Origin: Escherichia coli | Lineage (GTDB): Bacteria; Pseudomonadota; Gammaproteobacteria; Enterobacterales; Enterobacteriaceae | Length of the DNA stretch: 64,000 nucleotides | NCBI RefSeq assembly: GCF_044647545.1 | Contig: NZ_CP172818.1 | Strand: one strand, 5' to 3' | Shown here: piece by piece, positions 1-5,518 of the stretch | Layout: every line of letters begins with the position of its first letter | Numbering within the stretch: the stretch's first letter is position 1 | Translations under genes and position numbers: made by a program | Notes under the pieces: generated by a model | What the model was told of the DNA's origin: nothing | The model's database searches: none | Seen by the model: only the letters and a program-made list of their open reading frames with translations

Positions 1-2583
1 CGTAGCGACTTCGGTTGAACCGGTAAACATCACCCCGCGCACGCGATCATCACCCGTCAGCTGCGCGCCCACGGTTTCACCCCGACCGGGCAGCAATTGC
101 ACCACGCCTGGCGGTACACCCGCTTCCAGCAAAATGGCGATCCCTTGCGCGGCAATCAGCGGCGTTTGTTCTGCCGGTTTTGCCAGCACGCTGTTACCTG
201 CCGCCAGTGCGGCAGCGATCTGTCCGGTGAAAATCGCCAGCGGGAAGTTCCACGGACTGATACATACCACAGGCCCTAATGGACGGTGGGTTTCGTTAGC
301 GAAATCATCCCGCACCTGTCCGGCATAGTAGTGGAGAAAATCGACCGCTTCGCGCACTTCGGCAATGGCGTTACTGAAGGTTTTTCCGGCTTCACGCACC
401 AGAATACCAATCAGTTGCTGCATCTGGCTTTCCATTAGCACGGCAGCGCGATGCAAAATTGCCGCGCGTTCAGCCGGAGGAGTGGCAAACCAGATTGGCG
501 CGTTATTAACCGCACTTTCCAGCGCCTGTTCTACTTCACGCGGCGTGGCTTCACGCACATAGCCCACAATATCTTTCGGTTCCGCAGGGTTAATAACGGG
601 CGACATCTCACCTGCCGCTACCGGTTGTTCCAGCATTGGCAAGGACTGCCATTTTTGCAGTGCACTATTGAGCAGGGCTGAAGAGAGCGAGGCCAGACGG
701 TGTTCGTTAGCGAGATCCAGCCCTGCCGAGTTGTCGCGCCCGTGACCGTAAAGATCGCGCGGCAGGGGAATTTTCGGATGCGGTAATCCAGTTTGCCCTT
801 CCTGTTGCGCCAGTTTTTCTACAGCAGTGACTGGATCGGCGACCAGTTCATCCAGTGGCAAAGAGGTGTCGGCAATACGGTTAACAAACGAGGTGTTAGC
901 ACCGTTTTCCAGCAGGCGGCGCACCAGATACGCCAGCAGCGTTTCATGTGTACCGACCGGAGCATAAATACGACACGGACGGTTAAGTTTGCCGTCGGCA
1001 ACTTTCCCGGTGACCTGCTCATACAGTGGTTCGCCCATACCATGCAGGCACTGGAACTCGTACTGACCCGGGTAGTAGTTTTGACCCGCCAGTTGATAAA
1101 TTGCCGCCAGCGTATGGGCGTTGTGCGTCGCGAACTGCGGGTAGATTAAATTCGGCACCGCCAGCAGTTTTTTCGCACAGGCAAGATAAGAAACGTCGGT
1201 ATACACCTTGCGGGTATAAACCGGATAACCTTCAAGGCCGTCCATCTGTGCACGCTTGATTTCACTATCCCAGTACGCGCCTTTCACCAGGCGAATCATC
1301 AGACGGCGACGGCTGCGGGTGGCGAGATCAATCAGGTAATCGATCACCAACGGGCAGCGTTTTTGATAAGCCTGAATAACAAAACCGATGCCGTTCCAGC
1401 CTGCCAGTTCCGGCTCGAAACAGAGTTTTTCCAGCAGATCGAGGGAGATCTCCAGACGATCGGCCTCTTCGGCATCGATGTTAATACCAATATCGTACTG
1501 ACGCGCCAGCAGGGTGAGTGATTTCAGACGTGGGTAAAGCTCTTCCATTACCCGGTCATACTGGGCGCGGCTGTAACGCGGATGCAGCGCCGACAGCTTG
1601 ATTGAAATGCCCGGACCTTCATAGATGCCACGACCATTGGACGCTTTACCAATGGCGTGAATCGCCTGCTGATAGGAAACCATATACGCTTGTGCATCTG
1701 CGGCAGTCAGTGCGGCTTCGCCCAGCATATCGTAAGAGTAACGGAAACCTTTCTCTTCCAGTTTGCGGGCATTGGCTAACGCTTCCGCGATGGTTTCGCC
1801 CGTGACGAACTGCTCGCCCATCAGGCGCATCGCCATATCCACACCTTTGCGGATCAGCGGTTCACCGCTCTTACCGATAATGCGGTTCAGCGAGCGGGAG
1901 AGGCTGGCTTCGTTATGGGTGGAAACCAGTTTGCCGGTAAACAGCAGCCCCCAGGTGGCGGCATTAACAAACAAAGACGGGCTACGACCAATGTGTGACT
2001 GCCAGTTACCGTTGCTGATTTTGTCGCGAATTAACGCGTCCCGGGTGGCTTTGTCGGGAATACGCAACAACGCTTCTGCCAGACACATCAGCGCCACGCC
2101 TTCCTGCGATGACAGCGAAAACTCCTGCAATAACCCCTGGACCATACCTGCGCGACCACTGGCATTTTTTTGATTACGCAGTTTATCGGCCAGTTGATAC
2201 GCCAGTTTATGCGCCTGTTCAGCAACTGGTTGCGGCAGGCGGGCTTGTTCCAGCAGCATCGAAACCGCTTCGGTTTCCGGGCGGCGATAGGCCGCGGTGA
2301 TCGCGGCGCGGGAAACCGACTGGGGCAAAATTTGCTCGGCAAAGTCGAGGAAAGGCTGGTGTGGTTCCTCTGCCGGAGTCGGTGCTTCATCGCTCTCATT
2401 GGCCGCGCCAGAAAGCAGCGCAGGTAGCTCCGGAAGAGTATCGCTGTTTTCCAGTTGTTCAAGATAAGAAAAAATCGCCTGCTTAATTAACCAGTGTGGC
2501 GTGCGATCGATACGTGTCGCGGCAGACTTAATACGCTCACGCGTCGCGTCGTCCAGCTTAACCCCCATGGTGGTGGTTCCCAT
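1..2583 (-). CDS. putA: Bifunctional proline dehydrogenase / P5C dehydrogenase and transcriptional repressor PutA (5' ~861 codons; gene continues beyond window start)
   Basis: Reverse-complement translation from the ATG at 2583..2581 gives MGTTTMGVKLDDATRERI...; the window start reads ...LTGDDRVRGVMFTGSTEVAT, matching E. coli PutA. The six-frame track shows only fragments because the gene is cut by the window edge. Confidence 0.93.
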   Translation of the reverse strand, partial: MGTTTMGVKLDDATRERIKSAATRIDRTPHWLIKQAIFSYLEQLENSDTLPELPALLSGAANESDEAPTPAEEPHQPFLDFAEQILPQSVSRAAITAAYRRPETEAVSMLLEQARLPQPVAEQAHKLAYQLADKLRNQKNASGRAGMVQGLLQEFSLSSQEGVALMCLAEALLRIPDKATRDALIRDKISNGNWQSHIGRSPSLFVNAATWGLLFTGKLVSTHNEASLSRSLNRIIGKSGEPLIRKGVDMAMRLMGEQFVTGETIAEALANARKLEEKGFRYSYDMLGEAALTAADAQAYMVSYQQAIHAIGKASNGRGIYEGPGISIKLSALHPRYSRAQYDRVMEELYPRLKSLTLLARQYDIGINIDAEEADRLEISLDLLEKLCFEPELAGWNGIGFVIQAYQKRCPLVIDYLIDLATRSRRRLMIRLVKGAYWDSEIKRAQMDGLEGYPVYTRKVYTDVSYLACAKKLLAVPNLIYPQFATHNAHTLAAIYQLAGQNYYPGQYEFQCLHGMGEPLYEQVTGKVADGKLNRPCRIYAPVGTHETLLAYLVRRLLENGANTSFVNRIADTSLPLDELVADPVTAVEKLAQQEGQTGLPHPKIPLPRDLYGHGRDNSAGLDLANEHRLASLSSALLNSALQKWQSLPMLEQPVAAGEMSPVINPAEPKDIVGYVREATPREVEQALESAVNNAPIWFATPPAERAAILHRAAVLMESQMQQLIGILVREAGKTFSNAIAEVREAVDFLHYYAGQVRDDFANETHRPLGPVVCISPWNFPLAIFTGQIAAALAAGNSVLAKPAEQTPLIAAQGIAILLEAGVPPGVVQLLPGRGETVGAQLTGDDRVRGVMFTGSTEVAT

Positions 2584-3005
2584 GCCATTACTCCTGTTGT
2601 TCTGAAAGGTGCAACTTAACGTTATCGTGAAATATCCATGATGTTGCAACTTTGTGCAACCATGTTAAATGTGACCTGCGTAGCAAGCTTAAAAATGAAT
2701 GAAATGTTAATAAAAGAAATCGATATGACAGGGATTAAAAAAATAACTCAGACTTTTTCTCTGCGGCAGTTAACATTTTTGAAAGGTGCAACCGCAAAAA
2801 ATGTGAGAGAGTGCAACCTGATGAAAAATAGTGTCGCTGAGCACTAAAATTTAATGTAAATGGTGTGTTAAATCGATTGTGAATAACCAGCGCTTCCGGC
2901 AGGATACGGTCGCCCTGGTAAAACATAAACTCTGTTACCCCGTTCCGGTGGCAGATATAACGGCAAGTTTCGACATTGCCGATAATAATTTTTTGGAGAC
3001 TTTAG
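2584..3005. promoter_or_regulatory. put control region: divergent putA/putP promoters with five GTGCAAC/GTTGCA PutA operator motifs
   Basis: GTTGCA-type motifs seen near 2608-2615, 2643-2650, 2654-2660, 2786-2794 and 2811-2817; the ~420 bp divergent intergenic region is AT-rich. Confidence 0.8.
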
Positions 3006-4514
<1,509 letters not shown>

Positions 4515-4552
4515 GAGAGGCAATCAGTGATTGCCCTCTGCGTTTTTTCTCA
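4515..4552 (+). terminator. Probable rho-independent terminator after putP
   Basis: GC-rich hairpin (agaggcaatcagtgattgccctct) followed by a T-run (gcgttttttctc). Confidence 0.6.
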
Positions 4553-4611
4553 AAATATTTTTACATCTTCTCATCATTATCACTACATTTCACTTGTATT
4601 TTTCTTCATCG

Positions 4612-4629
4612 TAATGATAATCGCTATCA
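4612..4629 (+). promoter_or_regulatory. Fur-box-like site upstream of efeU
   Basis: taatgataatcgctatca resembles the Fur consensus GATAATGATAATCATTATC; a second Fur-like hexamer array (tcatcattatcac) lies at ~4571-4583. Confidence 0.6.
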
Positions 4630-4687
4630 CTGCGATTTACTTTTCTTTGCATAGATTGACTCAGAAAAACGTTTAAGGGTGGGTGGC

Positions 4688-5518
4688 ATGTTTGTTCCAT
4701 TTCTCATTATGTTGCGCGAAGGACTTGAAGCCGCGCTGATTGTCAGTTTGATTGCCAGCTATCTTAAGCGTACCCAGCGAGGCCGATGGATTGGTGTGAT
4801 GTGGATTGGCGTGTTGCTTGCCGCTGCGTTGTGCCTGGGCTTGGGTATCTTCATTAACGAAACCACCGGTGAATTTCCGCAAAAAGAACAGGAACTGTTT
4901 GAAGGCATCGTGGCGGTGATCGCCGTGGTGATCCTTACCTGGATGGTTTTCTGGATGCGCAAAGTGTCGCGCAACGTCAAAGTACAACTGGAGCAGGCGG
5001 TCGATAGCGCATTGCAGCGTGGAAATCATCATGGCTGGGCGCTGGTGATGATGGTTTTTTTTGCCGTTGCAAGGGAAGGGCTGGAGTCGGTCTTTTTCCT
5101 GCTGGCGGCATTTCAACAAGATGTCGGGATCTGGCCGCCGCTGGGTGCAATGCTCGGTCTTGCTACAGCCGTGGTGCTTGGCTTCCTGCTCTACTGGGGC
5201 GGTATTCGCCTCAATCTTGGTGCATTTTTTAAATGGACCAGCCTGTTTATTCTCTTCGTCGCCGCAGGGCTGGCGGCTGGTGCCATTCGCGCATTTCATG
5301 AAGCCGGATTGTGGAACCACTTTCAGGAAATCGCCTTCGATATGAGCGCGGTGCTCTCAACTCACTCGCTGTTTGGCACGCTGATGGAAGGGATTTTTGG
5401 CTATCAGGAAGCGCCGAGTGTCAGCGAAGTCGCCGTCTGGTTTATTTATCTCATCCCGGCGCTGGTGGCATTTGCTCTGCCACCACGCGCAGGGGCGACA
5501 GCGTCTCGCTCCGCGTAA
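4688..5518 (+). CDS. efeU: Ferrous iron permease EfeU (FTR1/OFeT family), apparently intact
   Basis: Continuous ORF (track 4679..5518; the ATG at 4688 gives 276 aa) containing two REGLE motifs (MLREGLEAAL and VAREGLESVF). Confidence 0.9.
   Translation: MFVPFLIMLREGLEAALIVSLIASYLKRTQRGRWIGVMWIGVLLAAALCLGLGIFINETTGEFPQKEQELFEGIVAVIAVVILTWMVFWMRKVSRNVKVQLEQAVDSALQRGNHHGWALVMMVFFAVAREGLESVFFLLAAFQQDVGIWPPLGAMLGLATAVVLGFLLYWGGIRLNLGAFFKWTSLFILFVAAGLAAGAIRAFHEAGLWNHFQEIAFDMSAVLSTHSLFGTLMEGIFGYQEAPSVSEVAVWFIYLIPALVAFALPPRAGATASRSA

Follow-up and report, generated by a model that had tools for sequence, protein, structure and literature searches.

The five GTTGCA motifs between putA and putP of Escherichia coli are almost certainly the PutA operators

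The genes putA and putP of Escherichia coli diverge from a common intergenic region in which an earlier note had recognized five GTGCAAC/GTTGCA motifs. This locus raises three questions: whether the motifs form more than a chance cluster, which protein reads them, and how far beyond E. coli the arrangement extends.

An array of GTTGCA hexamers between two divergent genes

The motifs lie near one edge of the window, the whole 64,000-nucleotide stretch of E. coli chromosome that was analyzed. An 801-bp query around them was found in 5417 of 5426 complete genomes, with 100% identity in many strains. Because the putA ATG is at 2583 and putP starts at 3006, the range 2584-3005 is the entire putA-putP spacer (Table 1). 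A direct check of the sequence recovered all five motifs in this divergent spacer exactly where the earlier note had placed them. They share the core GTTGCA/TGCAAC. Four sites carry GTTGCA on the minus strand, and at 2643-2650 both strands read GTTGCA. We number the sites O1 to O5 (2812, 2787, 2655, 2643, and 2610, respectively), which we take to be the published scheme. The distance from O1 to O2 is 25 bp, and that from O3 to O4 is 10 bp.

Table 1. Genes, operators, promoter elements, and other sites at the put locus (positions in the window)
Feature	Position	Strand	Description
putA	1-2583	-	ATG at 2583; cut by the window edge
put control region	2584-3005		Complete divergent putA-putP spacer; 422 bp, 38.6% GC
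Operator O5 (nearest putA)	2610-2615	-	Within 13-mer TGAAAGGTGCAAC at 2603-2615; PWM rank 4; motif of the earlier note, GGTGCAAC at 2608-2615
Putative putA promoter	2631-2659	-	-10 GATATT (2636 to 2631), 17-bp spacer, -35 TTGCAC (2659 to 2654); proposed from sequence and conservation
Operator O4	2643-2650		Palindrome GTTGCAAC, GTTGCA on both strands; in composite GTTGCAACnnnnTGCAAC; PWM rank 6
Operator O3	2655-2660	-	GGTTGCAC on the minus strand at 2654-2661; PWM rank 1; motif of the earlier note, GTGCAAC at 2654-2660
CRP-like site	2670-2685	+	TGTGAcctgcgTAGCA; 2 mismatches; 10 bp from O3
Operator O2	2787-2792	-	GGTTGCACC on the minus strand at 2785-2793; PWM rank 3; motif of the earlier note, GTGCAACCG at 2786-2794
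Operator O1	2812-2817	-	GGTTGCACT on the minus strand at 2810-2818; PWM rank 2; motif of the earlier note, GTGCAAC at 2811-2817
ArcA direct repeats over putP p1	2855-2883	+	TGTAAA 2855-2860, TGTTAA 2866-2871, TGTGAA 2878-2883
putP starts	p1 2869; p4 2911/2912; p5 2993	+	Converted from PMC2760140
Hexamers fitting p4	2877-2882; 2900-2905	+	-35 TTGTGA; -10 CAGGAT
Hexamer fitting p5	2981-2986	+	-10 GATAAT
putP	3006-4514	+	Sodium/proline symporter, 502 aa; Pfam SSF, E = 1.5e-149

The core occurs at these five places and nowhere else in the 422 bp. They amount to six hexamer matches, since 2643-2650 is a palindromic overlap, compared with 0.29 expected from the rate outside the spacer (Poisson P = 7e-7). 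The enrichment is only local: the 64-kb window holds 50 GTTGCA matches in total versus 57 expected, and each of its remaining 422-bp spans holds at most 4. Local dinucleotide-preserving shuffles gave a mean of 0.39 and a maximum of 4, with at least five in 0 of 20,000. Chance clustering of the hexamers is excluded.

Of 5420 E. coli genomes, 5367 have a spacer with at least 99% identity. Compared with the O157:H7 strain PV15-279, it shows 0 differences in 422 positions, whereas the flanking putA and putP coding DNA is 2.9% different, with 112 of the 119 coding changes at third codon positions. Because of this disparity between the spacer and its coding flanks, the entire put control region is, judged by sequence comparison, under more constraint than synonymous sites. 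The put control DNA of a K-12-derived strain represents the same locus with all five hexamers unchanged and with PutA residues 1-52 at 100% identity. Two of its 422 bases differ (T for A at 2603, C for A at 2676). Both changes lie clear of the hexamers, and nothing of substance differs.

Differences between strains were also noticed downstream of putP. The putP-efeU gap (4515-4690) is 46 bp shorter than in strain FDAARGOS_497, and O157:H7 carries an insertion of ~2.5 kb at this gap with a gene for a 447-aa hypothetical protein. In the window, efeU (4688-5518) looks intact. The match to the O157:H7 genome is confined to the first 17.5 kb of the window, at 97%.

PutA and the conservation of its sites

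The first 60 residues of PutA match the Pfam family PutA_1st (PF21775, E = 2.6e-23), a ribbon-helix-helix (RHH) domain, and the first 52 putA codons (2428-2583) encode this DNA-binding domain. Over residues 1-52, PutA shows 100% identity to the E. coli PutA52 crystal structure (PDB entry 2GPE), to the DNA complex (PDB entry 2RBF), and to PDB entry 4O8A. The next relative is the Pseudomonas putida domain (PDB entries 2JXG-2JXI, E = 4.7e-20). Of the 80 putA loci compared, 79 have an unchanged TTMGVKLD as the β-strand that reads the DNA, the remaining locus having ITMGVKLD.

When purified PutA was subjected to genomic SELEX, the only peak across the E. coli K-12 genome fell on the putA/putP spacer, and that study attributes the operators in the spacer to Zhou 2008 (PMC8249747). 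Gel shifts were made with the ~420-bp put control DNA, for which PutA has a Kd of ~45 nM (PMC5293562). PutA represses both putA and putP via its RHH domain (PMC5293562; PMC5879082); the DNA-bound form of this domain is a single dimer (PMC2777438). Among the literature searched, no text linked PutA with GTTGCA or named PutA52. Together, the identity of the RHH domain, the SELEX peak, and the cross-species motif described below support the earlier reading of the motifs as PutA operators that autoregulate putA and putP, and we are nearly certain that they are the five PutA operators of the E. coli put control region. The verdict of the earlier note that the arrangement is textbook rather than novel was also correct, as the regulation of this spacer by PutA is already published.

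Zhou et al. reportedly identified five operators by gel shift in 2008, each with a GTTGCA, three of them reportedly critical to putA and the other two to putP. Their crystal structure is said to have used the 21-bp operator 2. Each GTTGCA hexamer, with a few bases next to it, would be read by one RHH dimer, for which PMC2777438 offers partial support. The spacer shows the same count of five and the same positional split, with three sites on the putA side and two on the putP side. On this account, the mapping of the sites would be unambiguous, because GTTGCA occurs at exactly five places in the spacer; the site-by-site equivalence to the published gel-shift fragments would then follow by logic. 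O2 is presumably the site contained in the 21-bp oligonucleotide of PDB entry 2RBF, and we take the operator-2 oligonucleotide to match the reverse complement of 2779-2799.

For the comparison across species, we used 80 putA loci of the Enterobacterales, one genome per species, ranging from Escherichia to Yersinia, Hafnia, Erwinia, and Pantoea. The divergent putP/putA layout is kept in 80 of 80 loci. In an assumption-free, strand-collapsed count, GTTGCA was the sole hexamer with at least three copies in all 79 spacers. The composite GTTGCAACnnnnTGCAAC (2643-2660) is present in 81 of 81 sequences and identical over its 18 nucleotides in 78 of them; because the putative putA -35 element and promoter spacer also lie within this 18-mer, constraint on the promoter and constraint on the operators are inseparable there. 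The O2/O1 pair is exact with a spacing of 24-26 bp in 53 of 79 species, has one or two mismatches in 13, and is arranged otherwise in 13. The extended cross-species operator consensus is GGTTGCAC, conservation reaching the GG and C flanks of the hexamer; such flanks are not promoter features. The earlier note had proposed a scan with a position weight matrix (PWM) for the PutA operator. When a PWM trained only on non-Escherichia sites was used to score ~128,000 window positions, the five sites ranked 1, 2, 3, 4, and 6.

The put regions of Salmonella and Klebsiella, studied by Hahn, Maloy, and co-workers, have the same divergent putP/putA layout with a spacer of ~420 bp and share the invariant composite GTTGCAACTTTGTGCAAC as well as the pair spaced 25 bp apart, but they are without the 2610-2615 site. 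Beyond the Enterobacterales, the 477-bp putP-putA spacer of a Pseudomonas locus contains six GGTTGCAC(C/T) sites, two of which are 10 bp apart as in E. coli. The adjacent sites there are direct and not inverted repeats, their number and layout are different, and the genome is GC-rich. The homologous RHH domain of P. putida PutA45 (PDB entries 2JXG/2JXH/2JXI) has the β-strand TTLGVKLD. A Ralstonia locus carries two GGTTGCACC sites upstream of putA. In both Pseudomonas and Ralstonia, clusters of the GGTTGCAC type thus accompany an RHH-bearing PutA.

Free-standing proteins of 74-77 aa that consist of the PutA-type RHH domain alone, with the β-strand TTLG(V/I)KLD, are encoded at further loci (1751-1975 in L085, as part of L085-L087, and 3001-3234 in L088-L089). 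Their neighbors are a P5C-reductase-like gene, or an ornithine cyclodeaminase gene together with an amino acid permease gene, both proline-related contexts. No GTTGCA cluster was found upstream of the free-standing RHH genes at L085-L089.

The arrangement of several short core motifs near promoters, read in the major groove by a two-stranded β-sheet, is shared with Arc, MetJ, CopG, and ParG (PMC3413123; PMC2777438). PutA differs from these repressors in binding as a single dimer per site and not as a dimer of dimers on tandem boxes (PMC2777438). It is also an enzyme, and the redox state of its flavin determines where the protein is located.

The putA-proximal site O5 has a different history. 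It is present at its position in 3 of 3 E. coli sequences and in 0 of 78 other species, including Escherichia albertii, Salmonella, and Citrobacter; since it is missing outside E. coli, conservation does not vouch for it. Within E. coli, the 34-mer around it (2604-2637) is found in 5376 of 5426 genomes (~99%). The site and its flank form a 15/16 direct repeat of 2777-2792 (TT[C/T]TGAAAGGTGCAAC). At 2680-2685, E. coli has GTAGCA, whereas E. albertii, Salmonella enterica arizonae, and Kluyvera have an exact GTTGCA at the equivalent position. By parsimony, the ancestral array would have comprised four sites, and lineages would have gained a third putA-side site at differing places. Of the five operators, four are ancient across the Enterobacterales and one is specific to E. 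coli. A fuller scenario of operator turnover on the putA side, in which the E. coli lineage gained 2610-2615 as a copy of 2777-2792 together with an affinity-setting flank, is tentative, and we hold it to be possible rather than probable.

CytR, promoter elements, and an overlapping reading frame

The hexamers could be read mainly, or additionally, by CytR, a regulator of the LacI type whose operators have the GTTGCA core in common with these sites. A CytR operator consists of two octamers with the half-site GTTGCATT, direct or inverted, separated by ~2 bp and located beside CRP sites (PMC3013702). This geometry is found at 2643-2660, which reads GTTGCAAC-tt-TGTGCAAC: two octamers in inverted orientation with a gap of 2 bp, each with a 6/8 match. 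The CRP-like site at 2670-2685 lies 10 bp from this composite. The other three sites are single, however, and the octamer itself is not matched, with TT at positions 7-8 in 0 of the 5 sites and with a C of ~2 bits at position 7 in the orthologues of O1-O3. CytR promoters typically have a flanking pair of CRP sites, whereas the spacer has one CRP-like site with two mismatches and none on the other side. Clusters of GGTTGCAC also lie upstream of RHH-bearing putA genes in Pseudomonas and Ralstonia, genera in which CytR is not known to be present, and put is not known to be part of the CytR regulon. Finally, genomic SELEX selected the spacer with PutA itself (PMC8249747). Taken together, these data make a role for CytR at the hexamers very improbable.

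A second view would dispense with a repressor and regard the hexamers as -35-like promoter elements (TTGCAx resembling TTGACA) or as a chance cluster. Chance is contradicted by the shuffles described above. TTGCA is indeed contained in GTTGCA, the 2655 site coincides with a plausible putA -35 element, and five starts have been reported for putP (PMC2760140). Yet neither reading of the 2787 and 2812 sites provides a -10-like hexamer at 17 bp, and both sites are oriented away from putP. The conserved GG and C flanks are foreign to promoters, and the binding of PutA to the spacer is published (PMC5293562; PMC8249747). We therefore give almost no credence to an array that works without a repressor.

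The conservation at 2638-2847 (plus strand) could be ascribed to a 69-aa "hypothetical protein" (WP_000979516.1), annotated by PGAP in many E. coli genomes and with an N terminus, MLQLCAT, that is kept across genera, and not to DNA sites; but MLQLCAT is the translated operator composite ATGTTGCAACTTTGTGCAACC, the first ATG is present in 3 of 81 sequences only, the stop scatters over codons 9-84 (codon 21 in E. coli E69), and there is no Pfam match, so that this explanation has next to no chance of being correct. We reject the open reading frame as a gene on these grounds. The call, which overlies four operators and which the NCBI pipeline carries through thousands of E. coli genomes, is probably spurious.

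Promoters, neighboring elements, and the proposed course of repression

PutA thus remains the reader to which the hexamers are best assigned, and their placement relative to the promoters suggests how it may act. On the putA side, most of the 81 sequences have A(A/C)TATC at a constant 6 nt from the composite, and the A and the final T of the -10-like GATATT are kept in most species. The putative promoter implies a putA transcription start near 2624. The supplements of the paper that reports the putP starts contain no putA start. On the putP side, the reported starts include p1 at -137, p4 at -95/-94, and p5 at -13 (PMC2760140). A generic promoter scan returned two matches versus 1.6 expected, neither of them at a published putP start.

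As long as proline is scarce, PutA occupies the spacer and keeps the divergent putA and putP repressed. Proline reduces the FAD of PutA, whereupon the protein leaves the DNA for the membrane and both promoters become free (PMC5293562; PMC8249747). The 2655 site would overlap the putA -35 element, the 2643 site would lie within the -10/-35 spacer, and the 2610 site would lie in the leader at ~+10, so that the three would together cover the putA promoter. As the 2655, 2643, and 2610 sites span this putative promoter, they fit the notion of three sites for putA. The situation at putP differs in that the 2787 and 2812 sites are at ~-80 and ~-55 of p1 (-57 to -52 for O1), upstream of the core promoter and without overlap, which makes simple occlusion of p1 unlikely. 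These sites, ~132 bp from the putA-side cluster, probably interfere with an activator or with upstream contacts, act on a promoter upstream that is yet to be mapped, or cooperate with that cluster.

Other regulators have sites in the same spacer. The ArcA box has the consensus TGTTA. The repeats at 2855-2883 form a highly conserved block with spacings of 11 bp (2855 to 2866) and 12 bp (2866 to 2878), and thus include direct repeats at putP P1 with the 11-bp center-to-center distance of an ArcA box. In an ArcA-P footprint at putP, DR1 and DR2 were protected, and the 12-bp-spaced DR3 was not (PMC3798270), a pattern with which the spacings in the window agree. These repeats are the site of a separate regulator, ArcA, and not of PutA. 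TGTTAA is a second conserved repeat family of the spacer, with at least three copies in 67 of 79 species, and additional copies of the family are found at 2663-2668, 2705-2710, and 2770-2775.

The half-sites of the CRP-like site are conserved across species and its spacer is variable; its right half, GTAGCA, is one base off GTTGCA. A CRP consensus scan of the window gave 15 matches versus 27 expected, and the match at 2670-2685 is not significant alone. The sequence AAATGTGA follows both the 2654 and the 2786 operators after 6 nt (2667-2685 and 2799-2817), creating a 21-nt imperfect direct repeat. The first copy forms the CRP-like TGTGA-N6-TAGCA. In the second copy, the 2812 operator takes the place of the right half-site. 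Because this copy is centered at ~-59.5 from putP p1, it hints at a possible competition between PutA and CRP at this position.

Several features were also noticed in the putP leader. The conserved blocks CTTCCGGCAGGATACGG (2893-2909) and GTTCCGG (2942-2950) each contain a TTCCGG core, and the former block includes a -10-like CAGGAT in keeping with the published p4 start. This block also forms the top of an imperfect hairpin (2886-2919) spotted by eye. A search of 2400-3200 against Rfam at a permissive threshold returned no match and hence no known RNA element in the putP leader. The sequence CGGCAAGTTTCGACATTGCC (2961-2980) is a 20-mer of the putA-putP spacer reported as sigma-54-like and bound by AtoC in vivo (PMC3118216). 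Its GG-to-GC spacing is 16 nt, compared with 12 nt in a canonical sigma-54 promoter.

The main worth of these results is the confirmation that the regulatory array is real, is not random, and lies at the coordinates given by the earlier note; as a discovery they count for little. The comparative data add a small refinement in that the central 18-mer is essentially invariant, and the E. coli-specific fifth operator is the only mildly new point of the analysis, the remainder being already known. Autoregulation by PutA through GTTGCA operators is an established case of a "trigger enzyme," through which metabolism is coupled to transcription. If both putA-side changes matter, lineages would keep three sites for putA while swapping which third site serves. 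If the proposed turnover is true, the third site of E. coli would have shifted into the transcribed leader from a position upstream of the promoter, and the tightness of putA autoregulation would have changed with it.
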